Origin: Patescibacteria group bacterium | Lineage (GTDB): Bacteria > Patescibacteriota > Microgenomatia > Levybacterales > UBA12049 | DNA: 40,074 nucleotides | Reading direction: 5' to 3' | NCBI GenBank assembly: GCA_038061125.1 | Contig: JBBTZX010000034.1 | Span: 1 to 40,074 of the forward strand | Shown here: piece by piece, positions 1 to 31,788 of the stretch | Layout of the letters: each line of letters starts with the position of its first letter | Position numbering within the stretch: the stretch's first letter is position 1 | Notes under the pieces: model-generated | Databases searched by the model: none | What the model was told of the DNA's origin: nothing | Seen by the model: the letters and a program-made list of their open reading frames with translations, nothing else | Program-made: the position numbers and the translations under genes

Positions 1-68
1 TTTAGATATAAAATGGATTTACCTCTTAAATCGTACGATAAGAATTACAATATTAATTTATATACAGC

Positions 69-1436
69 CTAATAGCATTTAAAAAAGTTAATTCTGTTTG
101 CAATTCCTTCAGCTTGAACAGGTACGCTAAGTAATACTTTACACGCTTGATATATTTTTTCTTTATTGAATATCCCATCCAAAATATCTTGTTTTACATT
201 AGCTTCAGGATAATTTGCTCCGTGGGCAATGACAATAGTTTTACTTGAAATGGCGTCATTTGTTAAAACTTCTTTATCGTATAACCCTTTTGTAAAAAAA
301 TATTCATGAGCATCTCTAATATTATCTAGAGGAGAAGTGCGGGTTAATATAAGAAGAGCCGGAGTAATGTCGTTAACTCCATAAAGAAATTCCGGTTTTT
401 CTTTTTTAATTACAGCAAGAATTTTATTTACATCGTTAACTTTTTGTAAATTTTTATAAGAAGAAATATACGTATAAAGATTAAAAGTAAGGAAAATAAA
501 AACAATAGTAGGTATTACGAGTTTTTGAATACCAAATTTATTTTTTGAAAATTCAAAAAATTCATACAGGGAAAGGCATAAAAAAGGAATTATGAAGTTA
601 AGATACAAGTAGTATATGTCCTGATAATAGAAGAAGAAAGCAAGTCCCCAGAAAGAAATGGCGGCAAAAAATTTGTTTTTCTTGAAATTTAATAGATTAA
701 AAATTAAAAGAACAAAAAGTGCGAAGTCTTTTGTTATAAAAAACCATCCAACTTCTATTTTGGAAATTCCTGCAGGGCGTATGAGAGAAAAACCAAAAAT
801 ATCATGAAAAAATTGCTTCGGGGCAATAATTAAAGAAGGGATAAGAATAATGGCTAATGCTATAGAGAAGCCGATACCAAACTGGAATAATTTCTTCCAG
901 TTTTTATTTACTAGAAGTATGGTAAAAAAAGATAAGGGTATAGAAATAAAATAGGCTTTAGTTAATAAAGCCAAAGCAATAAAAACGCCCGATATAAAAA
1001 ATTTATTTCTTTGGAATAATAAAAAACCTAATACTGCAAATAAAGAGGCGGTAAAAACGCCAGTTTGATGATCGGAAGTAGATAATACAATAAAAGAAAA
1101 AATGTAGAGCAGAGAACTTAGCGTAGAGATAAAATTACTTTTTGTTGAATGGTAAGTAGTTACGTAGATGATAAAAGTTACGATTATGACTTCTATTGTG
1201 GATGTGAGGTAAAAAAGATTAATATTGCCCCCAGTTATAAAATAATAAAATGATGAAATATATCCAAATAAAGGGAAGTTGGAGAAAAAGAAATCTTTAT
1301 ATAATATTTTTCCGTGGATAATTTGGTATGCGATATTAAAATAAATATTGGTGTCGGAAAGTCTTATCCCCAAATTTGTCACTTTGACTACGAAAAATAT
1401 AAGAAGGAAACTGAAAAGGGGAATCAAGCGTATCAT
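69..1436 (-). CDS. Polytopic membrane protein, GT-C fold (ArnT/PMT-like) glycosyltransferase candidate
   Basis: 455-aa ORF with many hydrophobic helices followed by a soluble C-terminal part. Same build as the other GT-C-like ORFs here. 4-nt overlap with the upstream FemAB-like gene. Confidence 0.5.
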   Translation of the reverse strand: MIRLIPLFSFLLIFFVVKVTNLGIRLSDTNIYFNIAYQIIHGKILYKDFFFSNFPLFGYISSFYYFITGGNINLFYLTSTIEVIIVTFIIYVTTYHSTKSNFISTLSSLLYIFSFIVLSTSDHQTGVFTASLFAVLGFLLFQRNKFFISGVFIALALLTKAYFISIPLSFFTILLVNKNWKKLFQFGIGFSIALAIILIPSLIIAPKQFFHDIFGFSLIRPAGISKIEVGWFFITKDFALFVLLIFNLLNFKKNKFFAAISFWGLAFFFYYQDIYYLYLNFIIPFLCLSLYEFFEFSKNKFGIQKLVIPTIVFIFLTFNLYTYISSYKNLQKVNDVNKILAVIKKEKPEFLYGVNDITPALLILTRTSPLDNIRDAHEYFFTKGLYDKEVLTNDAISSKTIVIAHGANYPEANVKQDILDGIFNKEKIYQACKVLLSVPVQAEGIANRINFFKCY

Positions 1437-2386
1437 TTCTTAATTCTTAAAATAGTCCATCTAATTTTATCCAATAGCTTATATATTTCATAAAAGAATG
1501 AATTAATAACTAAATCAAAACTTCCAATAAATTCAACAAGTTGTCCTCCATAGCCTTCTTTAAACCGATGAAATCCATACCATGGGTCATTTTTATCAGG
1601 ATTAGATCCGAGCGCTCCCCACATATCAAATTTTTTCAAACCAAGTTTTTTGCCAAATTTAATAGCTTCCCACATCATGAGATTTGATGCCATAGTTTCT
1701 CTATAAAGACTTGATGAGGCGCCATAAGGATAATAAAGGGTATCTTTATAAACAAAGAGAATCCAAGCAGTTAATATTTGATTTTTATATTTTGCTAACA
1801 AAAGCCGTGCAGTCAATTTATCGACATTTGAATTTTGAGTTTTTAATGTGTTCCACATCAGCTTATGATAATTTTCTGTGTGTGCATAGAAATTTTGACG
1901 TTTAGTTGTTTCTTTTGTAAGTTTTAGATATTCCTCAAAAGCTTTATCCGAATTATCTTCAATTATTTCAACATTATGTTTTTGAGCTATTTTAATGTTG
2001 TATCGAGTCTTCGGATGCATTGATTTTAATAAATCTTCTTCACTTTTTGTTAAATCCAAAATAAATGTATATTTGGTGAAAAGAGGATGAAAAGAAGGCC
2101 TAATGCCTAAATTTGCCATTTGCCATTTACCATTTGCCATTTGCTTTACGTTTGGTTCAAGTTGGATAAAAATACATTTCTCTTTTTTACCAATCTCACG
2201 AAGTTTAACTACCATTTCTTTTGTTGGCATAGGGCTTTTCGGCAGATATCCTACAGTCCAAGGAGTATGCGGAATTTTATGGATTGTTAGCTGAAATCCC
2301 TTTTCTCTGATAACTTTTAGTCCTGTTTTTTGCCTAAATTCGCCCCATTCTAAAGATTGCATGGGATGAATTGAATTATTGTTCAT
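1433..2386 (-). CDS. FemAB-family peptidoglycan interpeptide-bridge aminoacyltransferase
   Basis: 317 aa. N-terminal QSLEWGEFRQKTG and a C-terminal GFHRFKEGYGG-type segment are typical of the FemABX / lipid II aminoacyltransferase family. Overlaps pcrA stop and start by 4 nt. Confidence 0.7.
   Translation of the reverse strand: MNNNSIHPMQSLEWGEFRQKTGLKVIREKGFQLTIHKIPHTPWTVGYLPKSPMPTKEMVVKLREIGKKEKCIFIQLEPNVKQMANGKWQMANLGIRPSFHPLFTKYTFILDLTKSEEDLLKSMHPKTRYNIKIAQKHNVEIIEDNSDKAFEEYLKLTKETTKRQNFYAHTENYHKLMWNTLKTQNSNVDKLTARLLLAKYKNQILTAWILFVYKDTLYYPYGASSSLYRETMASNLMMWEAIKFGKKLGLKKFDMWGALGSNPDKNDPWYGFHRFKEGYGGQLVEFIGSFDLVINSFFYEIYKLLDKIRWTILRIKK
2112..2144. repeat. Tandem heptanucleotide repeat TTTGCCA x4.7 (one unit TTTACCA) inside the FemAB-like CDS
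   Basis: Read directly: tttgcca tttgcca tttacca tttgcca tttgc. Encodes QMANGKWQMAN on the minus strand. Confidence 0.9.
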
Positions 2387-4254
2387 AGATATTCCGGTAA
2401 ATTTCTATCTAAATTTACAGCATGCAAATTATTCGAAATTACTTCTTCCGGTAGCTCCAAAAGAAATCTGGATATTGTATTGGACGTTCGCTGTCCGAAG
2501 AAAATTCTTCGGGAGGCAAAAGTTAAAAAGAGTTTTTCTTTTGCTCTTGTCATTCCTACATAGCATAAACGTCTTTCTTCCTCCAATTCATTTTTGTCCA
2601 TAAGGCTTCTCTGGTGGGGGAATAATCCTTCTTCCATTCCAACCATAAAAACTATGGGAAACTCAAGTCCTTTAGCCGCATGAAGAGTCATTAAAGTTAT
2701 CGCATCTTTTCTATCGCTATCTTTGGCAGGTTTGTCCGGCATGTATTCTTGTTCAACTAAGGCAATATTTTCCAGAAATTCCGTAAGATTTGGAAAGGCA
2801 ACTGCAACCGAACGAAGTTCTTTAATATTTTCCAGCCTTTCTTTATCTTCCTCCTCGCTTTTATCATATAACGAAAGATAATCAGTTGCTTGTAAGATTT
2901 TATCCAATACCTCAAGAGTTGTAATATTTATTGGATCTTTTATTTTTTCTACCAACTCCAGAAATTTATTCATTCTTCCTTTCCCCAATTTGCCAATCCT
3001 TCTATACGAAACCATATCTTTTGGATTTTCCAAAAATCTAACAAACGCTAGGATATCTTTAATTTCCTTCCTTTCGTAAAACCTAGTACCGCCAACCAGA
3101 ACATAGGGTATGCCTTGATGTAATAATATTTCTTCAATGACTCTGGATTGTGCATTAGTTCTATAAAAAATTGCTACGTCGGTAAATTTCCAGTCAGAGG
3201 TTGGTCCGCCTTTGGCGGAAAAATTTGAGTTTCGAGATTTAAGATTAGCAATCTCTCTAACTATAAATTCTGTTTCATCTTGTTCGTTTCTTGCTTCGTA
3301 GATTATAATATTTTCTCCTTTTGGATTTTTGGTCCAAAGAGATAGGACAGGATGAGTAGTATTATGTGAGATAACCGAAGAAGCAGCATCCAAAATTTTC
3401 TGCGTAGAGCGATAATTCTGTGAAAGAGCAAATGTTTTTGCACCCTTAAAGTCCTCTTTGAATTTCGTAAGATTGGTAAAATCCGCACCCCGCCAACTGT
3501 AAATGCTTTGGGAAAAATCGCCAACAACGCAAATATTTTTCCATTTAAGAGAAAGGGTCTTGGTTAAATAGTATTGTGCATGATTGGTATCCTGATATTC
3601 ATCAACCATAATATATTGAAAGCGATTCTGATATTTCTTAAGGATTTCTTGTTCTTTGTTGAAAAGCTCTATGGTTTTTAGTAAAAGATCATCGAAATCC
3701 AAAGCGTTGTTTTCCGAGAGCTGTTCTTGATATTTAATGTAAATTCTGGCTGCTTGTTCCTGAAAATGTCCTCTTGCATATCTAGGATATTCAAGCGAGG
3801 TTATCAGCTCATTTTTGGCCTGGGAAATTGCGCCTAATATAGAAGAAGGTTTATAATCTTTGGTTGGAATATTTAGTTTTAGCATAGCTTCTTTTATTGC
3901 ATCCAGCTGATCGGTAGTATCGTATATGGCAAATTTTTCCGAAAGGCCGATGTGTTTTCCTTCTATTCTAAGAATTCTGGCACATAAAGAATGAAACGTT
4001 GCGATTAATGGTTTTCCTTTTGTGATAAACTTTCCAATTCTTTCTTTCATTTCATTTGCCGCTTTATTGGTAAACGTTACCATTAATATATTGGACGGAT
4101 CGATACCTTTCTCCTGTATTAAATACACAACTTTATAAGTTAAAACCCTGGTTTTGCCGCTGCCTGCACCCGCAAGTATGACCATCGGACCGTCTGTATT
4201 TATTACTGCTTGTTTTTGTTCCAAATTTAAGTCCTTGAGAAAGGCATCAATCAT
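2383..4254 (-). CDS. pcrA: ATP-dependent DNA helicase PcrA/UvrD (SF1)
   Basis: 623 aa. Walker A AGAGSGKTRVLT, DEYQDT motif II, TLHAAKGLEF and CYVGMTRAKEKL helicase motifs. Confidence 0.9.
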   Translation of the reverse strand: MIDAFLKDLNLEQKQAVINTDGPMVILAGAGSGKTRVLTYKVVYLIQEKGIDPSNILMVTFTNKAANEMKERIGKFITKGKPLIATFHSLCARILRIEGKHIGLSEKFAIYDTTDQLDAIKEAMLKLNIPTKDYKPSSILGAISQAKNELITSLEYPRYARGHFQEQAARIYIKYQEQLSENNALDFDDLLLKTIELFNKEQEILKKYQNRFQYIMVDEYQDTNHAQYYLTKTLSLKWKNICVVGDFSQSIYSWRGADFTNLTKFKEDFKGAKTFALSQNYRSTQKILDAASSVISHNTTHPVLSLWTKNPKGENIIIYEARNEQDETEFIVREIANLKSRNSNFSAKGGPTSDWKFTDVAIFYRTNAQSRVIEEILLHQGIPYVLVGGTRFYERKEIKDILAFVRFLENPKDMVSYRRIGKLGKGRMNKFLELVEKIKDPINITTLEVLDKILQATDYLSLYDKSEEEDKERLENIKELRSVAVAFPNLTEFLENIALVEQEYMPDKPAKDSDRKDAITLMTLHAAKGLEFPIVFMVGMEEGLFPHQRSLMDKNELEEERRLCYVGMTRAKEKLFLTFASRRIFFGQRTSNTISRFLLELPEEVISNNLHAVNLDRNLPEYL

Positions 4255-4260
4255 AAGTAT
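4225..4260 (+). repeat. Left copy of a perfect 36-bp direct repeat (ATTTAAGTCCTTGAGAAAGGCATCAATCATAAGTAT)
   Basis: Identical to 6808-6843. Covers pcrA codons 1-10 plus 6 nt upstream. Confidence 0.95.
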
Positions 4261-4324
4261 TATTATAAGTAAACTACTTTATTAAGTTGAAGGTGTCTTG
4301 TAATTGTAACAGTAGCTTAAGCTC

Positions 4325-4353
4325 TTGACAACCACCTTATAGTGTGATAATAT
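4325..4353 (+). promoter_or_regulatory. Sigma70-like promoter of the DGR target gene
   Basis: TTGACA (4325-4330), 17-nt spacer, TAATAT (4348-4353) preceded by TG at 4345-4346 (extended -10). The in-frame ATG at 4362 follows 8 nt later, so the mRNA is possibly leaderless. Confidence 0.5.
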
Positions 4354-4361
4354 ACGTCATC

Positions 4362-4973
4362 ATGGTGCAGGCTTTAGAAAATTTATCCATACATTATAGA
4401 ATAAAAGGAGATGCTACGAGGGCAGCTCTATATTCAAAGCTAACGGCAGAAGAGCAAGCTAGAGGAACACCTAGAATCCTTTCAGAAGTTCCAGTATTTC
4501 TTCTAGGTATACCGGCTGATGAGGGTCTGACTAACAAGGAAATGGAAGCATTGCTAGATTCTGCAAGAGAAAAAGGTCTTAAGGTCAGCGATTGGGCAAG
4601 AAGAATAATTGGAAGAGCTGATGTTTCCAAAGACCCTCAAGCATCAGAATTGATGGCATTGGATAATCTTACTATGGGACTTCCTGAATACCCAACAACA
4701 ACGCAAGTATGGGAAAAATCGGCTGAATTTGGAAACAAAATTTCCGCGGAACGATTCGTCCGCTTTGCAATAGAGGCTGCGGAAGGAAAGATCCCTGTAG
4801 AAATAGGAAAACCGTTTGTTGCGATTATGGAGCCAGTGGCTGGCACGAGTGGCGGTCCGGGAGTTCTCTGTCTTGGACGCTCCGGGGGTGGATTGTGGTT
4901 GGATGGCCGTTATGCTGATTCTGACGATCAGTGGGGTCCGGTGTTTCGGTTTGTTGTTTCTTCTCGCAAGTAA
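4362..4973 (+). CDS. DGR target (variable) protein with C-terminal variable region
   Basis: The ORF track starts at GTG 4344. I prefer the in-frame ATG 4362 because of the promoter position. The last ~45 codons are the VR. The gene is visibly more GC-rich than its neighbours. No signal peptide or TM helix is visible. Confidence 0.8.
   Translation: MVQALENLSIHYRIKGDATRAALYSKLTAEEQARGTPRILSEVPVFLLGIPADEGLTNKEMEALLDSAREKGLKVSDWARRIIGRADVSKDPQASELMALDNLTMGLPEYPTTTQVWEKSAEFGNKISAERFVRFAIEAAEGKIPVEIGKPFVAIMEPVAGTSGGPGVLCLGRSGGGLWLDGRYADSDDQWGPVFRFVVSSRK
4836..4972 (+). repeat. DGR variable repeat (VR)
   Basis: Gap-free alignment to 5299-5435 (offset 463). All mismatches fall where the TR copy has A. 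Confidence 0.9.
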
Positions 4974-5298
4974 TTAGTTCTTAAATCTTTTGACACTTCG
5001 TTTTTTTTGTTCCTTAGTCTCTTTGATTCTGTTATACTTTGAAATTTCCGTCAAAATTTTTTTGATATACTTTTAATAGAAAGATATTGCTGAACGGCTA
5101 AGGCTTTTCAATATCTCTCCGGCAAATACATATCGGGAATACAAATGGTTAAGGCTTTCTGTAGAGGATTTGTATTTTGTCAAATTAAAAAAGAAAAACT
5201 TGGTGTAATGCGCTGGCTGATTTAAATATCACAAGTAAAATACAGCTTAATCTCTTGTTATTACTAGATAAGCAGTGAATTAGATGGCGTGTTATACG

Positions 5299-5435
5299 AA
5301 AACTGACACGAATGGCAATCCGAAAGTTCTCTATCTTGAACGCAACAAGGATGGATTGTGGTTGAATAGCAATTATGCTAATTCTGACAATCAGTGGAAT
5401 CCGGAAATTCGGTTTGTTGTTTCTTCTCGAAAGAA
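5299..5435 (+). ncRNA. DGR template repeat (TR)
   Basis: The adenine-rich copy of the VR. It has six AAY codons in the target frame at diversified sites. The 5' edge is ambiguous (5299-5303). The A-free 3' block CGGTTTGTTGTTTCTTCTCG is identical in both copies. Confidence 0.9.
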
Positions 5436-5442
5436 GTTCTTT

Positions 5443-5468
5443 CCGCAACTTAACCGTTGCGGTTTTTT
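5443..5468 (+). terminator. Hairpin plus T6 immediately 3' of TR (intrinsic terminator and/or DGR RNA structural element)
   Basis: CCGCAAC (5443-5449) pairs with GTTGCGG (5456-5462), 6-nt loop, then TTTTTT (5463-5468). The avd stop codon lies in the loop on the opposite strand. Confidence 0.6.
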
Positions 5469-5797
5469 ATTGATTCTATCTCTAAACTTTTTCTCCAGCC
5501 GCCAAACATTTTGCCGGTTTCATCAAGCTTTATTGCTATCTCTTCGTATTGCTTATGGGAGATAAGTTTGGCTTCCCAGGTTAAAGAAATCAAGAACTTA
5601 AGAATATCCAGATTAAAGATGCAGTTAGAAATTTTCTCAAGTTTTTTATCCTTACTGCTAAAATAGGCAGTGTAGGTAATTTCCAAAAGATCGAGAAATT
5701 TATTTTCAATTCTGACGCCAAGTGTATAGCGGCTGGTTTTTGGAATATGCGGAACAATAGTAATCCAAATCAAATATCCCTGTTTAATTCTGCTCAA
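5450..5797 (-). CDS. avd: Avd-like four-helix-bundle protein (DGR accessory variability determinant; 23S rRNA IVS protein family)
   Basis: 115 aa, TTG start. PKTSRYTLGVRIE and the C-terminal LDETGKMFGGWRKS match the family pattern (xGKMLxGW). Located between TR and RT but on the opposite strand. Confidence 0.75.
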   Translation of the reverse strand: MSRIKQGYLIWITIVPHIPKTSRYTLGVRIENKFLDLLEITYTAYFSSKDKKLEKISNCIFNLDILKFLISLTWEAKLISHKQYEEIAIKLDETGKMFGGWRKSLEIESIKNRNG

Positions 5798-5812
5798 AAT
5801 AGAACTGCTTTC

Positions 5813-5828
5813 AGAGAGAGAGAGAGAG
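5813..5828. repeat. (AG)8 dinucleotide microsatellite in the divergent avd/RT control region
   Basis: Read directly: agagagagagagagag. Confidence 0.95.
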
Positions 5829-5868
5829 TAAAAGACCGTTTCATATTAAATATAATGATATCATTTCT

Positions 5869-6813
5869 TTGGAAAATTTACTTATTTCATGGCAGGAATT
5901 TTTGAGAGGCAAAAGAGAAAGAAAAGATGTTGCCGAATTTTCACTGCGTTTAATGGACAATATCTTTTTTCTTCGCTTTGAACTATTAAATAAAACATAT
6001 AAACATGGGTTTTATCAGGCTTTTAAAATTAATGATCCGAAACCTCGAGACATCCATAAAGCAAATGTAAGAGATAGATTTCTTCATCACGCAATTTGCA
6101 GAGTTTTATATCCGTATTTTGATAAGAAATTTATCTTTGATTCATATTCCTGCAGATTAGAAAAAGGAACCCATCGAGCAATAAATCGTTTTAGAGATTT
6201 TGCCAGAAAAGCTTCCTGCAATAATGCTCGGACAGCGCGGGTATTGAAATGCGATATTAAAAAATTCTTTGCCAATATTAACCACCGGATTTTACTCAAT
6301 ATTTTAGAGAAAGATATAGAGGATGCTGACGTAATGTGGCTTTTAAAGGAAATTATCGAAAGCTTTTGTACTAAAGGTAAAAAGAGAGTTGGTCTTCCGC
6401 TTGGCAATTTAACCAGTCAATTATTTATTAATATCTATATGAATGAATTTGACCAATTCGTAAAGCGAACACTGAAAGTTAAGTATTATATCCGCTATGC
6501 TGATGATTTTGTGATTTTCCATGAAAGCAAAACATATTTAGAAAAACTTATTCCCAAAATATCGCAATATCTGGAAAAGGAACTAAAACTTTCTCTTCAT
6601 CCCAAAAAAGTCTTTATTAAAACACCTTCTTCAGGTATAGAATTTTTAGGCTGGGTCCATTTTCCTCAGCATCGAATATTAAGAACCGCAACGAAGCGAA
6701 GAATGTTTAGAAATTTAAAGCAAAATAATTCAAAAGAAATACTTGTTTCATATTTAGGTCTACTAAAACACGGAAATACTTATAAATTAGTAAAGAAAAT
6801 ATTAAGGATTTAA
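5869..6813 (+). CDS. DGR-type reverse transcriptase
   Basis: 314 aa, TTG start. KPRDIHKANVRDRFLHHA (RT motifs 1/2), LKCDIKKFF (motif A), LPLGNLTSQLFINIYM ([ILV]GxxxSQ DGR signature), IRYADDFVIF (YxDD). The stop codon lies inside the right 36-bp repeat. Confidence 0.9.
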   Translation: MENLLISWQEFLRGKRERKDVAEFSLRLMDNIFFLRFELLNKTYKHGFYQAFKINDPKPRDIHKANVRDRFLHHAICRVLYPYFDKKFIFDSYSCRLEKGTHRAINRFRDFARKASCNNARTARVLKCDIKKFFANINHRILLNILEKDIEDADVMWLLKEIIESFCTKGKKRVGLPLGNLTSQLFINIYMNEFDQFVKRTLKVKYYIRYADDFVIFHESKTYLEKLIPKISQYLEKELKLSLHPKKVFIKTPSSGIEFLGWVHFPQHRILRTATKRRMFRNLKQNNSKEILVSYLGLLKHGNTYKLVKKILRI

Positions 6814-6843
6814 GTCCTTGAGAAAGGCATCAATCATAAGTAT
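6808..6843 (+). repeat. Right copy of the perfect 36-bp direct repeat
   Basis: Identical to 4225-4260. Carries a decoy pcrA start on the minus strand (MIDAFLKDLN then a stop). Confidence 0.95.
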
Positions 6844-6873
6844 AATAAAAAAGCTGCATTATAATTCTAACAT

Positions 6874-7536
6874 ATGAAAAAGCTTTTTATTGTAGGTAAT
6901 TGGAAGTCAAATAAAACAGCTCTCGAAGCCAAAAACTGGCTTGACGCGTTTAAGGTAAACGATTTAGGAATTACAGACAAAGAAATTATAATTTGTCCTC
7001 CATTTACCCTTTTGTCTTCGATTTCGTTAGAAGTTAGAAGTCAGAAGTTAGAAGCTAGGATTGGCGCGCAGGATATTTCCCCTTTTGATGAGGGTGCATA
7101 TACAGGAGAAATTAATGGGAAGCAAATTAAAGAGTTTGGGGATTATGTTTTGATTGGGCATTCCGAAAGGCGGCAATATCTTAAGGAAGATGACGAAATC
7201 TTAAATAGGAAAGTGATAATGGCTATTAAGTATAATTTGATACCAATTTTTTGCGTACAAGAACGGAATACTGTTATTCCTTCAGGCGTTAGAATAGTAG
7301 CTTACGAACCAATATGGGCAATTGGCACTGGTAATCCGGATACTCCGGATAATGCTGAACAAGTTGCAACAGCGATAAAATCTTCCAATAAAGAAATTAC
7401 ACATATTCTTTATGGCGGAAGCATAACGTCAGCGAATACAAATAGTTTTACAAAAATGTCCCAGATCGATGGGGTTTTGGTAGGAGGCGCAAGTCTAGAT
7501 TCCACGGAATTTTTAAAGATCATTAAAAATGCATAA
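6874..7536 (+). CDS. tpiA: Triosephosphate isomerase (short form)
   Basis: VGNWKSNKT, IGHSERR, AYEPIWAIGTG, LYGGS motifs. TATAAT at 6860-6865 lies 8 nt before the ATG. Confidence 0.9.
   Translation: MKKLFIVGNWKSNKTALEAKNWLDAFKVNDLGITDKEIIICPPFTLLSSISLEVRSQKLEARIGAQDISPFDEGAYTGEINGKQIKEFGDYVLIGHSERRQYLKEDDEILNRKVIMAIKYNLIPIFCVQERNTVIPSGVRIVAYEPIWAIGTGNPDTPDNAEQVATAIKSSNKEITHILYGGSITSANTNSFTKMSQIDGVLVGGASLDSTEFLKIIKNA
7026..7060. repeat. Tandem heptanucleotide repeat GTTAGAA x5 (units 3 and 5 diverged) inside tpiA
   Basis: gttagaa gttagaa gtcagaa gttagaa gctagga. Encodes LEVRSQKLEAR. Confidence 0.9.
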
Positions 7537-8620
7537 AAAAGTACTTATTATTTTTTTAATCCTGCTTTTGATAGTAGTTGGTAAAATAACGATTGAAGCA
7601 GTAAAAATTTCCCCCTTTTTATTTCAGCTAATTTTCACCAAGGATATAAATCTTAATAAATCGGATGATCATTTAAATATATTGCTTTTGGGTATTGGCG
7701 GGGGAACGCATGAAGGACCGGATCTGACAGATACTATAATTTTCGCTAGTATAGATATGAATAACAACAAAGCAATTCTTGCATCTATTCCGAGAGACTT
7801 ATGGAGTCCTGATTTAAACGCAAAAATAAATACAGCCTATTCAGGAGGAGAAGCAATCAGGAAAGGTGGTGGAATTACTTTGGCAAGTAGTGCTGTTTCA
7901 AAAATTCTGGATCAATCTATAAATTATACAGTTAGAATTGATTTTAACGGATTTATAAAAGCCCTGGATATTTTGGAAGGTCTTGATGTAAACGTTGATA
8001 AAAGCTTTGATGATTATGAATATCCAATTTCAGGTAAAGAAAATGATCTTTGTGGACGCACAGAAAAAGAAACACAGGCTCTTGCTACAGCATCTTCGCA
8101 GCTTGAAGCATTTCCCTGCCGTTATACCCATATACATTTCGATAAAGGATTACAGCGTATGGATGGAAAAACTGCTTTGGAATTCGTCAGATCACGCCAT
8201 GCACAAGGAGAAGAAGGTACTGATTTCGCAAGATCCAAAAGACAGGAAATTATTATAAAAGCTCTTAAGGATAAACTATTTTCCCTGCAAGTGCTGGCGA
8301 ATCCAATAAAAGTAATTGGTATTTACAGTACTATTAAGGATAGCATAGACACGAGCATAGAGCAGGATGAACTGGATGATTTTATTCGCCTAGCACAAAA
8401 AATGAAAAACGTAAAAATAGAAAGCGCGGTTTTGGATTACGGTGATGATCTAACAGGAAGATCTGGACTTCTTATGAATCCGCCAATAAGCCAAGAATTT
8501 AATTATGCTTGGGTGCTTATTCCAAGAATAGGAAACGGCAATTTCTCCGAAATCCAGAAATTCGTTAAATGTGAGATAACACAAGGAAACTGTGTGGTTT
8601 TACCAAAACCCGTTTATTAA
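7529..8620 (+). CDS. LytR-CpsA-Psr (LCP) family cell-envelope phosphotransferase
   Basis: N-terminal TM helix. NILLLGIGGG...PDLTDTIIFASID and ASIPRDL are LCP-domain hallmarks, followed by FVRSRH. 8-nt overlap with tpiA. Confidence 0.8.
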   Translation: MHKKVLIIFLILLLIVVGKITIEAVKISPFLFQLIFTKDINLNKSDDHLNILLLGIGGGTHEGPDLTDTIIFASIDMNNNKAILASIPRDLWSPDLNAKINTAYSGGEAIRKGGGITLASSAVSKILDQSINYTVRIDFNGFIKALDILEGLDVNVDKSFDDYEYPISGKENDLCGRTEKETQALATASSQLEAFPCRYTHIHFDKGLQRMDGKTALEFVRSRHAQGEEGTDFARSKRQEIIIKALKDKLFSLQVLANPIKVIGIYSTIKDSIDTSIEQDELDDFIRLAQKMKNVKIESAVLDYGDDLTGRSGLLMNPPISQEFNYAWVLIPRIGNGNFSEIQKFVKCEITQGNCVVLPKPVY

Positions 8621-8629
8621 AAACCCGAT

Positions 8630-10726
8630 CTAATATTTGAATTTATAGATTGTTACTCCTTTGTTTAGATATATTATACTGCCGAGTTGTTTAAATTTAT
8701 CCTCATTTAAATACAAATATTTTTTTCTTTCCAGCTCACCTACATAGACATATGAAATATTGTATTTCTTCAGAAGTTCTTTTGTAACGAGTAAATCTTT
8801 GGATTCGTAAAGGGCTGATACATCATTGATTCTGGGAGCGGGGATATCGTAAGTTCCGCGCCATAACCACTCATGTACTGTCCAACCCAAAACTGTCGGA
8901 AGACCGGTATTCGCAGATATTCTGGCATAATCTGTATAAGAATCTCCTTGCGCTTCCAAAATTACAGGTTGTCCTTTGATATTCTTGTTTATCCATTGAA
9001 TTGCCAAATAGTCATTTGGATAAAGAGAATTTAAATAAGATGTACCGTTAAGCCCTTTGTAGGAATTTAACCCGCCATAATAAGAGTTAATTGCAAAATA
9101 AGGATAAATCCCTACGAGAAATAACCCAATAATGCCAATTCCAAATACTACCAATTTGAAATAAGAAAGTCTAAGATTTGAAAATATTTTAAAAATTATA
9201 TAACCTGAAGAAATAGATAGCATGATGAAAGATTCGTAAACAAGTTTAAACATAGTATTCGCTCTATAATGAGCAGGATAAATGTCCTTTAAATACACAA
9301 ATTCAGGAACAACGATAAGAATCGTAGATAAGATTATTAGAATTCCAATGAAGATATCACTAGCGTTTGGTTTATAACGCTTAGCGTTTAGTTTTAGAAA
9401 AATAATAAATGCTATAACCCAGAAATAAAAAAATCCGTAAAGAATTGCCAGCTGCCAAAGAGGAGATTTTTGACAATGGTTTGGTTCAAAAAGAAAAGGA
9501 CCAAGATGTCCGATATCCGTCAAAAACTTTGGTGCGCAAAGAATTCCGATATTGGAAGCAAAGGGAGTAAAATTTTTAGAAAAAGGTAAAGAGAAAAGAA
9601 ATGCGCCTCCCATAAGAAACAGAAGGTTCATATATATTCCGGATTTAGGCTTAATAAAAAGAATAATAAGAAAGACAAGCAAGAAATAGATAATTGTATC
9701 CCAAACATTTGTCATATACATTATTGCCAATAAAAAGCTTATTAAAAGCAGAGTTGGGATTTTGAAGTTTTTAGAATAGAAAGATGAGAGAAGGATGGCA
9801 ATTGTAAGCAAAACGAAAGGGATATCCAATACATGTCCATGTAAATCCGAAACAACGAAAGAATAAATTGGGAATTCATGGATAGTATTGAAAATAAAAC
9901 GCGTTGCATTGGGGTACCAGTATGCATTTGGGAAATTTTGCGGAGAAAATATAAGCTGCCAAAAGGGAACAGGCGAGCCATTTACATAAGGAGTGAAAAA
10001 TGAATATATAGAGTGGATATTTCCTCCCATAGCTACAAGAAGCGAAGTCAGTAGTCCTCCAAGAAGAATTTTTAATTTTAAATTTTTAATTTTAAATTGA
10101 CTAAGAAGATTTAACCCGATAGAAAAACTGGCGGTAAAGGTTAAAGAAAATAAAGTAGCGATCATAAGGTTATAAGTTATGAAAGAGGGGATTTGAGATA
10201 TTTTCGTCAAAAGAGCAGTCACTAAATGGCCAAAATAATAGTAGTTTATAGGAAATGGTGTAAACCACATATCGCGCGGAGGAAAATAATCAGCCCGCAG
10301 AATGGAATTTACGAATCCAAAATCCATAAATTTTTCCAGCCCATGGATATCAGGCTGAAATCCTCTTACATAAGACCAAAAGAGGAGAGCGGCCAAAAAG
10401 ATTAGCTCTTCGAGAAAATAGATCCCCAAATTTTTCTTAAAATTTAATTTCGATAGAAACTTAGTTTTTTTAGCAACGAATAGATTAACAATTAATAAAA
10501 TTATACAAACAAGAATAATAGTAGGCATTTGGAATGGAAGGATTTTTAATATCCCAAGCAAAAAAACTATATAACTTAAAATTGCAATTCCCAGAATTCT
10601 TGAAAAAATATATCCTCTGTCAAAAAAATTAGAAAAAATGCTGGTAGTCAGCGGCAAAAAAACAATCCCAATAGTAAGAAACATTACCCACCATTTAAAA
10701 ACGTAAGATAAATCAGATAGAAACAT
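8630..10726 (-). CDS. Large polytopic membrane protein, DUF2298 / chlor_Arch_YYY-type (GT-C-like)
   Basis: 698 aa, more than 15 hydrophobic segments, INYYYFGH motif, soluble C-terminal domain. Confidence 0.6.
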   Translation of the reverse strand: MFLSDLSYVFKWWVMFLTIGIVFLPLTTSIFSNFFDRGYIFSRILGIAILSYIVFLLGILKILPFQMPTIILVCIILLIVNLFVAKKTKFLSKLNFKKNLGIYFLEELIFLAALLFWSYVRGFQPDIHGLEKFMDFGFVNSILRADYFPPRDMWFTPFPINYYYFGHLVTALLTKISQIPSFITYNLMIATLFSLTFTASFSIGLNLLSQFKIKNLKLKILLGGLLTSLLVAMGGNIHSIYSFFTPYVNGSPVPFWQLIFSPQNFPNAYWYPNATRFIFNTIHEFPIYSFVVSDLHGHVLDIPFVLLTIAILLSSFYSKNFKIPTLLLISFLLAIMYMTNVWDTIIYFLLVFLIILFIKPKSGIYMNLLFLMGGAFLFSLPFSKNFTPFASNIGILCAPKFLTDIGHLGPFLFEPNHCQKSPLWQLAILYGFFYFWVIAFIIFLKLNAKRYKPNASDIFIGILIILSTILIVVPEFVYLKDIYPAHYRANTMFKLVYESFIMLSISSGYIIFKIFSNLRLSYFKLVVFGIGIIGLFLVGIYPYFAINSYYGGLNSYKGLNGTSYLNSLYPNDYLAIQWINKNIKGQPVILEAQGDSYTDYARISANTGLPTVLGWTVHEWLWRGTYDIPAPRINDVSALYESKDLLVTKELLKKYNISYVYVGELERKKYLYLNEDKFKQLGSIIYLNKGVTIYKFKY
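10068..10098. repeat. 14-nt tandem repeat ATTTTTAATTTTAA x2.2 (two diverged 7-mers per unit) inside the YYY-protein CDS
   Basis: Read directly at 10068-10081, 10082-10095 and a partial third unit. Low-complexity AT sequence. Confidence 0.7.
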
Positions 10727-28483: not shown

Positions 28484-29677
28484 TTAAAGGGCGAAAAGTA
28501 AAATAGCACCGATAATCGATAAAATACCACCCATTGCTCCAATTTTCAAGAATGTTTCTGAAGGTCCAGGAGCTGCTATTGGAGAAACTTTAGGAGTAGG
28601 AGATAAGATTTGTCCTACGACAAGAGTTAGTGTTGGAGTAAGCCCTGCGGAAATACTAGAGCTTGGTTGTCCTGCTACTGCAGGAGTGCCGGTTACAATT
28701 GCCCCTGTAGCGGTTTTTACCGTAACCGTTTGCGTGCAGCTGGTTGGGCTGTTGGTTGTTCCATTATTGTCCGTAAACATTGCCGAAGCAGTGAAATTTC
28801 CCGCATTGTGATACGTATGAAATGTTTGTACACTTACAGAACTTGAGCCAATACCTCCGCCTTGAATAACATCCTGTATGGGACCGTCTCCAAAATTAAA
28901 ACTAACCTTAGATATAGTTCCGTTAACTTTTCTGCCATTTGCAGTAAAATTAAGAGAGAAAGGAACGTTGCCTGATGCTGTGCGATCTACGCTTAAACTA
29001 TCACAAACTGGAGGAGAATTGGTTGTAGCAGCAGCGCCGGGCTGGGATGTCGGAGTTGGAGTTAATAATGCGGTTGAGGAGATTTCAATAGTAGCAGGAA
29101 GAGAACTTATGGTTCCCGTAGAATCTGTTTTTAAAACATTTTCGCTTGACTTATCGGTTCCTGCCACAGAGAAAGCTTGGCTATCATTCGCAAAACTTAT
29201 TTTCGTTGTCCCGGTTTTTAACGGAGCAAATGCGACATAGGCAACTGTAACAGGCGATGATATTTTTGCAGTTGCCGCTGTTATTGAAATAGAGATAGCT
29301 ATGTTATTGCCACCGGGCGTTGGACCTTCAACAGTTTGTAAATTGGAATTTCCTTTATCAGGACAAAGACTATCTTGAGGATTTGAGCATACGGAACCGG
29401 CAGGAGCTGTCTTAAGGAAAGCAGGATCATAATTTATACTTAATTTCAAGAAAGAAAGTTGATTGTCTTTAGGGTCGACATTAATTTTAAATAATAACAC
29501 TTCGGAAGAATTAGTAGTTTTGGAAGAAGGATCAAAAGAGAAAATTGTTGTTGGAGCTGCTTTGCTCCTTAATTCCTGCTGCTTTTGTACGACGTAAACA
29601 GTTAAGGGGATAGCGACAAGAATGACGACAATAAACATTAGGAGAATTACCTTTTTGATTAAGGATAAAGAAGCCAT
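28484..29677 (-). CDS. Secreted surface protein with a cohesin-like domain, a PKD-like domain and a C-terminal hydrophobic anchor
   Basis: 397 aa. N-terminal signal/anchor helix, PKD-like FNFGDGP...HTYHNAGNFTA, a Pro/Thr-rich linker, and a C-terminal helix GAMGGILSIIGAILLFAL. Confidence 0.5.
   Translation of the reverse strand: MASLSLIKKVILLMFIVVILVAIPLTVYVVQKQQELRSKAAPTTIFSFDPSSKTTNSSEVLLFKINVDPKDNQLSFLKLSINYDPAFLKTAPAGSVCSNPQDSLCPDKGNSNLQTVEGPTPGGNNIAISISITAATAKISSPVTVAYVAFAPLKTGTTKISFANDSQAFSVAGTDKSSENVLKTDSTGTISSLPATIEISSTALLTPTPTSQPGAAATTNSPPVCDSLSVDRTASGNVPFSLNFTANGRKVNGTISKVSFNFGDGPIQDVIQGGGIGSSSVSVQTFHTYHNAGNFTASAMFTDNNGTTNSPTSCTQTVTVKTATGAIVTGTPAVAGQPSSSISAGLTPTLTLVVGQILSPTPKVSPIAAPGPSETFLKIGAMGGILSIIGAILLFAL

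Positions 29678-30129: not shown

Positions 30130-31788
<1,659 letters not shown>

Follow-up and report, generated by a model that had tools for sequence, protein, structure and literature searches.

The window analysed here is the whole stretch of 40,074 nucleotides (nt) formed by contig JBBTZX010000034.1 of GenBank assembly GCA_038061125.1, which derives from a Patescibacteria group bacterium placed in the Levybacterales. A diversity-generating retroelement (DGR) lies near its left end, between a helicase gene and tpiA, and comprises the following parts (VR, variable region; TR, template region; RT, reverse transcriptase; aa, amino acids):

4362-4973, plus strand: DGR target gene of 203 aa, with an ATG start codon at 4362 backed by homologue alignments, a stop codon at 4971-4973 and a C-terminus reading FRFVVSSRK.
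4838-4973, plus strand: VR, the last 45 codons of the target (residues 159-203), in which 28 of 28 mismatches to the TR fall at TR adenines.
5301-5436, plus strand: TR, 136 nt, repeating the VR at a fixed offset of 463 nt.
5450-5797, minus strand: avd (accessory variability determinant), 115 aa (Pfam bAvd, E = 1.7e-16; PHROG 'Avd protein of DGR').
5869-6813, plus strand: DGR RT, 314 aa, start codon uncertain (RVT_1, E = 5.2e-23; phrog_1423, E = 2.4e-103).

The differences between TR and VR in the window consisted of 21 A>G, 4 A>T and 3 A>C changes, which altered 28 of the 42 TR adenines. Adenine-confined differences were also found at four homologous loci (loci are designated by numbers with the prefix L), and the tally over the window, L003, L005, L009 and L016 gave 70 A>G, 18 A>T and 15 A>C, that is, 103 changes at TR adenines among 104 mismatches in total. 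The A>G share in the window (21/28) departs from equal thirds (p = 8e-6), and this bias may reflect either the misincorporation spectrum of the RT or selection. The avd product scored 61 bits against Pfam bAvd (cut-off 40 bits) and 71.6 bits against NCBIfam DivGenRetAVD (E = 5.6e-20), just under the 80-bit cut-off of the latter, and the RT translation carries the LGNLTSQ and YADD motifs. The order target, TR, reversed avd and RT was also found at the homologous loci L003 and L016. Because the adenine-confined TR/VR mismatches occur together with an identified Avd and RT, the cassette is a bona fide DGR and the 203-aa gene is its target, in agreement with the sequence-only reading, which had placed a C-terminal VR in this open reading frame.

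The same reading had presented the target as atypical, being small and devoid of export signals. Two published surveys bear on this. The B3 layout, 'TR-(avd)-RT', accounts for 90% of DGRs in the Candidate Phyla Radiation (CPR), with targets mostly in 'unknown VR' classes that lack motifs (Wu et al. 2018, PMC5758913), and the targets of the CPR clade are typically without transmembrane (TM) segment, signal or conserved domain (Roux et al. 2021, PMC8144416). The window locus shows the TR-(avd)-RT order in a Levybacteria host, its avd lying on the other strand. With CPR-type DGRs (B3 in the former survey, CPR clade 2 in the latter) it shares the order target, TR, reversed avd, RT, the CPR host, the C-terminal VR, a target without TM segment, signal peptide or recognisable domain, and the presence of PcfJ-like N-terminal domains in some relatives; nothing essential separates it from them, the structural model and the fold assignment given below being additions of the present analysis. 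The features called atypical are therefore the norm of the lineage, and the target is an ordinary member of the known CPR B3-type kind. The original claim thus changes nothing in the knowledge of DGRs, signal-less and domain-less targets being the documented CPR norm.

The attribution to the Levybacteria agrees with the 90%-identity cluster of the flanking helicase, one member of which is named Candidatus Levybacteria. Species-representative genomes with members of the target family numbered three, two of them Levybacteria/Levyibacteriota metagenome-assembled genomes (MAGs) and one a MAG labelled uncultured Gammaproteobacteria; a family scan of IMG/VR viral contigs found none. The target itself belongs to no NCBIfam or PHROGs family, and its sole Pfam match is sub-threshold (NikA-like, see below). 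Relatives of the target were retrieved by a profile search of a 90%-clustered collection (33 sequences) and by an exhaustive HMMER search, which gave 854 cluster representatives at E <= 1e-3; the best 140 superfamily representatives are mostly of about 160-290 aa, and Pfam scans of the target's relatives returned sporadic matches only. Family members lie in unrelated housekeeping contexts that differ at each locus. For some of them (L001, L014, L018, L020, L007) the neighbours are genes of ribosomal proteins or tRNA synthetases, and TR, avd and RT are all absent from the surrounding 3.5-6 kb. Of the VR-TR spacer, locus L001 (6001-6780) still has the first 160 nt, without TR, avd or RT, and it is for this reason a DGR remnant; the target gene seems either to persist after the loss of its DGR or to be acted on in trans.

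Two distant superfamily proteins (P0058 and P0130) have the variable domain fused to a PcfJ-like N-terminal domain (cf. category g of Wu et al.), and another (P0119) has an HNH endonuclease domain (HNH_3) after the variable domain. Such fusions hint that some superfamily members act in the cytoplasm, in functions related to nucleic acids. Three further proteins (P0131, P0032, P0033) were considered as stand-alone versions of the N-terminal module and rejected, these short fragments resembling truncated open reading frames.

The full-length target was modelled with AlphaFold2 from a 31-sequence alignment (pLDDT 90.1, pTM 0.78). Helices (H) and strands (E) were assigned in the N-terminal part at H2-14, H18-34, E45-47, H58-69, E73-75 and H77-85, and in the C-terminal part at E97-100, H113-120, H129-140, E152-154, E166-174, E177-184 and E196-201. 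Two segments of the gene are used in what follows:

4494-4619, plus strand: residues 45-86 (VFLLG...IIGRA), a 'ribbon-helix-helix-like' strand-loop-helix-strand-helix module, defined on the AlphaFold2 secondary structure; its ribbon-helix-helix (RHH) signals are weak.
4635-4973, plus strand: residues 92-203, a C-terminal beta-alpha-alpha-beta4 domain resembling C-type lectins, defined on the AlphaFold2 model and on Foldseek, whose top matches are C-type lectin-like domains (CTLDs).

In the model, residues 1-91 consist of a helical hairpin peculiar to the family and, after it, an alpha/beta module that would find its partner strands within its own chain. Residues 92-203 modelled alone gave the same elements (pLDDT 90.6); residues 97-100 stayed a strand in this model, without the N-terminal part, and would therefore belong to the C-terminal sheet. 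When the domain model was compared with the Protein Data Bank (PDB) by Foldseek, CTLDs made up seven of the eight top matches, and they were also the commonest kind among the top matches of the full-length model; these CTLDs (rhodocetin, EMS16, ZK002, BDCA2, CLEC4D) aligned over about 129 columns with TMq of 0.37-0.49. The element order in the fold of C-type lectins (CLec), beta1-alpha1-alpha2-beta2-5 with the strands and loops at the C-terminus holding the VR, is present in the AlphaFold2 models. On these models, residues 92-203 are likely to form a compact CLec-like domain.

Pfam models include named CLec families of DGR targets, such as FGE-sulfatase and DUF1566, and no Pfam match to a CLec family (FGE-sulfatase, DUF1566, Mtd-type) was obtained in the window protein, its 31 relatives or the 140 superfamily representatives. 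Searches of PDB sequences with the family, superfamily and module profiles returned no relatives, and a Foldseek search of BFVD returned no match. The FRFVVS terminal strand may be reminiscent of the GFR(V/C)(V/A) ending of CLec VRs in published logos. With the CLec-fold variable proteins of characterised DGRs (Mtd of phage BPP-1, TvpA, AvpA, TaqVP; PMC6328139) the target shares a C-terminal VR, AAY-rich TR codons, the beta-alpha-alpha-beta4 order and C-type lectin domains as best structural neighbours. It differs from them in belonging to none of their sequence families, in the non-significance of its Foldseek matches, and in the size of the domain, which is much smaller (about 110 aa) and carries an N-terminal extension of 90 residues of its own type.

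The variability of the VR across the family follows the TR. Codons whose TR counterpart has an adenine as its first or second base had a mean entropy of 2.27 bits, the remaining ones 0.65 bits (p = 1.6e-7), and the 16 most variable positions (at least 2 bits, within 163-195) were all among the 24 VR codons of the former kind. The invariant residues (G164, L169, R173, G177-L178, L180, A185, W191, F197-V-V-S) form the scaffold, and the most variable positions are assumed, from what holds for other DGR targets, to be the ligand-binding surface.

Export signals were assessed at the level of hydropathy. The highest 19-residue Kyte-Doolittle mean of the target, 1.21, fell within a core beta-strand. 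The N-terminus (MVQALENLSIHYRIKGDATRAALYSKLTAEEQARG) is an amphipathic helical hairpin and lacks a hydrophobic core; the small target without signal peptide or TM helix described earlier is thereby confirmed at this level. Taken together, these data make it likely that the 203-aa protein is a chromosomal CPR-type DGR target, a soluble CLec-like ligand-binding protein without classical export signal, and not a DNA-binding repressor. Most likely, such a soluble ligand-binding module would act inside the cell or leave it by a non-classical route; a cytoplasmic localisation is what we infer.

Several points weigh against this interpretation. DGR activity is a prediction, and the VR was identical in the one other assembly bearing the target protein, the sole difference outside the VR being F135C; the localisation and the binding of a ligand are likewise predicted. 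No significant Foldseek match was obtained in the PDB (best E = 0.088, TM < 0.5), and the solved DGR variable proteins (Mtd, TvpA, TaqVP) were not among the top matches. When the C-terminal domain was modelled in isolation, three of five models had a pLDDT of about 60, for which reason this domain may depend on the N-terminal part for its folding. Finally, when the superfamily profile (residues 40-90) was compared by hhalign with the N-terminus of E. coli NikR, residues 59-85 aligned with helix A, turn and helix B of the latter, with a probability of 52% and a score of 19.9, which none of 200 shuffled NikR sequences reached (7.1 +/- 1.4). The test is insensitive, RHH controls against the CopG profile ranging from 0.3 to 86% (NikR 86%, CcdA 25%, Arc 11%, MetJ 4.7%, Mnt 0.3%, the top alignments of MetJ and Mnt lying outside their RHH domains). 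Because the NikR score exceeds those of the shuffles and the test is insensitive, a remote RHH descent of the module is possible.

The first alternative is that the target, like those of classical DGR systems, is a cell-surface or secreted adhesin, which would be exported independently of an N-terminal signal and let the episymbiotic CPR organism attach to phage or to the cells of its host. PcfJ-like and HNH nuclease domains would normally be cytoplasmic, and the occurrence of the former in some superfamily members and of the latter in one speaks against such a role. A hydrophobic N-terminal segment was absent from 138 of the 140 superfamily representatives, the window protein included; it was present in the two others, one of which (...GAVMTGC) is lipobox-like in appearance and so offers the adhesin some support. 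The predicted CLec-like nature of the variable domain also fits an adhesin, as does the report that the targets of cellular DGRs are in most cases proteins of the surface (PMC8144416). No secretion gene is conserved as a neighbour, the context being different at every locus, and on balance we hold an adhesin to be unlikely, though worth keeping in view.

A second alternative had been put forward in the sequence-only reading, which compared the N-terminal part of the target with a CopG/Arc-like DNA-binding unit: the protein would be an intracellular RHH DNA-binding protein bound to the palindrome at its own promoter, and the DGR would diversify its C-terminal, ligand-sensing end. The absence of an export signal at the hydropathy level is compatible with this. 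Residues 56-90 gave a NikA-like Pfam match (E = 0.015 for the whole protein, 15.9 bits for a cut-off of 27; E = 0.0047 when the segment was scanned by itself). An RHH domain with an insert is also what the family consensus AIRLPD...EEMERLADSTRGLNVGDWGRDILKRA resembles, and the NikR comparison given above counts in the same direction, as does a CcdA match in one superfamily member. Every RHH match was however sub-threshold and sporadic: the NikA-like match was seen in one of 31 close relatives, and a single CcdA was the only RHH-type match at E <= 0.01 among the 140 superfamily representatives. The close-family profile reached 2.8% against NikR and 0.6% against the CopG-family profile, no hhalign probability against the CopG profile exceeded 0.6%, and no RHH chain of the PDB matched the module profile even at E <= 10.

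The structural details of the module also speak against an RHH domain. The resemblance consists of a helix A, G-x-x-x-S turn, helix B pattern, a hydrophobic strand before the helices ('IRLP' in the family consensus) and weak profile similarity to RHH domains (NikR N-terminus, NikA, CopG, CcdA), the alignment to NikR covering the two helices only. The strand is part of no RHH alignment and is separated from helix A by a 10-residue insert, and a further short strand stands between the helices. Residues 45-47 and 73-75 are already assigned as strand by DSSP in the monomer model, so that their partners would be intramolecular. The module is acidic (pI 4.9), the strand VFLLG offers neither a basic nor a polar residue for contacts with bases, the arginine of the consensus AIRLP is lost throughout the window's sub-clade, and a diverged Levybacteria homologue (L007) has neither the strand nor most of helix A. 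A unit of the form beta-loop-alpha-G.K(V/I)S-alpha seemed to occur twice, at residues 43-86 and at 96-140, which might have indicated a tandem RHH; this internal duplication was tried and rejected (hhalign 0.3%). These comparisons indicate a resemblance in helix-turn-helix sequence pattern only.

The DNA to which such a protein would bind was examined with the features upstream of the target gene:

4314-4323, no strand: perfect 10-bp palindrome AGCTTAAGCT, real, at chance frequency and not conserved as a palindrome in homologues.
4303-4331, minus strand: promoter-like site facing the helicase gene, TTGTCA-17-TACAAT with TG, a consensus match whose function is putative.
4325-4353, plus strand: target promoter, TTGACA, 17 nt, extended -10 TGaTAATAT (4345-4353), ending 8 nt before the ATG; a consensus match with a presumed transcription start.

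The palindrome is perfect and lies 1 nt from the -35 box TTGACA (4325-4330), as had been described; the operator role attached to it is not supported. Perfect 10-bp palindromes numbered 39 in the window against 64 +/- 8 in shuffled sequences. The sequence directly 5' of the -35 box is variable in 12 homologous loci, close relatives having AGCTTAAACT and AGCTCGAAGT and the others nothing similar, so that the palindrome is shared neither in sequence nor in position upstream of homologous targets. A palindrome of at least 8 bp was found 5' of the -35 box in 3 of 11 loci, against a background of 6.4% (p = 0.03, post hoc); these were rejected as an operator because their sequences and positions all differ. 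The palindrome also falls within the spacer of the minus-strand promoter-like site (4331-4303), and it is best regarded as incidental.

The target promoter is, by comparison, a conserved element. The pattern TTGACA-17-TGnTAACAT, 8-10 nt before the ATG, was found at most of the 12 homologous loci (L001, L003, L005, L010, L011, L013, L014, L016, L017), and the target mRNA is probably leaderless, or nearly so, because the promoter ends so close to the start codon. This promoter is better conserved than the 50 N-terminal residues of the protein. Its spacer, AACTCATAGTATGA, is highly conserved, also in copies without DGR, and contains an inverted repeat, TCATAgTATGA, whose conservation in several homologues is a further argument for a DNA-binding target; the repeat is degenerate in the window itself (TTATAgTGTGA). 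We hold that the protein is not a DNA-binding repressor, and the probability left to a DNA-binding RHH function, whether or not it acts on the palindrome, is very small.

An equally slight chance is given to a combination of the two views, the family of roughly 200-aa proteins being a cytoplasmic two-part sensor, in which a CLec-like ligand-binding domain diversified by the DGR would be joined to an alpha/beta module of RHH descent (residues 45-86). If this were true, hypermutation would retune the responses of an intracellular nucleic-acid-binding or signalling protein, for instance to phage components, in genome-reduced CPR bacteria, and the question raised by Roux et al. (2021) on signal-less CPR targets would be settled in favour of genuine non-membrane targets.

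The base composition of the target was examined for a foreign origin. GC content reaches 42.2% in the non-VR part (4362-4835), the window averaging 34.1% (z = 2.3, within the top 2.3% of 474-nt windows), and 45.4% in the whole gene (z = 3.5); an excess beyond what A-to-G drift in the VR would produce, noted earlier, is thereby borne out. The VR has 56.6% GC against 39.7% for the TR, this extra GC resulting from the A>G-dominated substitution spectrum. At the three codon positions the non-VR part has GC1 0.557, GC2 0.424 and GC3 0.285, against 0.416 +/- 0.055, 0.328 +/- 0.053 and 0.269 +/- 0.025 in host genes. The target protein is the richest of the window in Gly+Ala+Arg+Pro (30.4%, against 18.7 +/- 3.5% in the other window proteins) and the poorest in Phe+Tyr+Met+Ile+Asn+Lys. 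Since the excess lies in codon positions 1 and 2 and GC3 is host-like, it is explained by protein composition (Gly/Ala/Arg/Pro-rich), and not by foreign origin or mutational drift. Two long genes of the window are similarly GC-rich (28484-29677 at 40.9%, 30136-31788 at 39.3%); from their sizes and positions, we take them to be EF-Tu and GroEL. A recent acquisition from a GC-richer donor, to which the 42% of the non-VR part and the insertion of the cassette relative to a syntenic relative might point, is scarcely credible with an excess wholly in GC1 and GC2 that tracks amino-acid composition, a GC3 inside the host range, and an avd (34.8% GC) and RT (31.1% GC) that are host-like though carried by the same inserted cassette.

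For a soluble CLec-like DGR target, the following course of events is proposed. By analogy with characterised DGRs, a discrete TR RNA would be transcribed, in which a conserved leader of about 225 nt precedes the 136-nt TR, and hairpins and a terminator form the 3' part. An Avd-RT complex would copy this RNA with misincorporation at template adenines, mostly as A>G in this clade, and the cDNA would replace the last 45 codons of the target gene, again by analogy. The most likely mechanism is mutagenic retrohoming of the standard kind, which would rewrite the face that a small CLec-like binding domain exposes.

The putative TR RNA is delimited by the following features, and its extent (leader, TR, terminator) is inferred from them:

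5063-5071, plus strand: conserved extended -10 TGaTATACT, candidate promoter of the TR RNA (alignments A7 and A8; function presumed).
5075-5300, plus strand: leader on the 5' side of the TR, non-coding and conserved (74-80% identity between loci), a candidate for a structured portion of the DGR RNA.
5429-5468, plus strand: hairpin GAAAG..CTTTC at the 3' end of the TR; after it come a second hairpin, CCGCAAC..GTTGCGG, and a T-run, which make up an intrinsic terminator; read from the sequence.

Within the cassette, conservation at the DNA level is highest in the VR-TR spacer, with 74-80% identity against 70-72% for the DNA of the RT gene. In an alignment of six sequences, RNAalifold predicted helices at 5079-5119 and 5121-5181 with compensatory changes, and two-sided pair changes numbered seven, against 3.1 +/- 1.2 in shuffled alignments and 0-1 in slid controls. 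The hairpin at the 3' end of the TR is conserved, and the terminator stem co-varies with pairing kept (GCAAC/GTTGC in the window, GCCAA/TTGGC in L003). These data are suggestive of a conserved, structured RNA leader that would lie on the 5' side of the TR in the B3 layout. A scan with Rfam at gathering thresholds gave no match anywhere in the window, which also contains no tRNAs. The divergent intergenic region between avd and the RT gene contains a dinucleotide run, (AG)8 (window 5813-5828).

The cassette is flanked by the genes of a UvrD/PcrA-like helicase (2383-4254, minus strand) and of tpiA (6874-7536), and by two copies of a direct repeat:

4225-4260, no strand: left 36-nt direct repeat, covering the first 10 codons of the helicase gene and 6 nt upstream, identical to 6808-6843.
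6808-6843, no strand: right 36-nt direct repeat, containing the RT stop codon and a promoter-like TTGAGA-17-TATAAT upstream of tpiA (repeat and consensus match).

An exact look-up of the helicase protein, made to find it in other contexts, gave no record; the corresponding empty site was found via a member of the 90% cluster of the helicase. The related Levybacteria MAG GCA_030651475.1 (L025, 4880-5060; also L026, 2680-2850) has the same synteny (LytR, TIM, helicase, FemAB, PMT_2), with only 93 nt between tpiA and the helicase gene and no DGR between them. Window positions 1-4284 align to this MAG at 88% identity and 6873-8770 at 83%, and positions 4285-6872 are replaced by 62 nt. Because tpiA and helicase are adjacent without DGR in this syntenic relative, the comparison indicates that a minimal DGR of about 2.6 kb was inserted as a unit, with a flanking duplication of 36 nt. 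No flanking direct repeats were found around the homologous cassettes at L003, L005, L009 and L016, and the 36-nt repeat is therefore specific to the insertion in the window; a full-text literature search found no report of target-site duplications for DGRs.

The value of the locus is seen in a confident structural model and an 854-cluster family for one 'unknown VR' target type, in a clean pair of filled and empty sites, which shows that a minimal cassette (promoter, target, TR, avd, RT) entered a housekeeping intergenic region, and in an RNA on the 5' side of the TR that is conserved and apparently structured, here within the B3 layout. The insertion pair and the RNA leader could guide work on the spread of DGRs and on the priming of CPR-type DGR RNAs.

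Short-read contigs from three other samples (L022, L023 and L024, first 70 nt) carry an identical tpiA and all start inside the 36-nt repeat, as is expected when a repeat is longer than the k-mer of the assembler. By implication the repeat, and with it probably the DGR insertion, is present in these samples as well. The coding sequence of tpiA in the window also contains a 7-nt tandem repeat (7026-7059; GTTAGAA GTTAGAA GTCAGAA GTTAGAA GCTAGG), which encodes ...SLEVRSQKLEARI....

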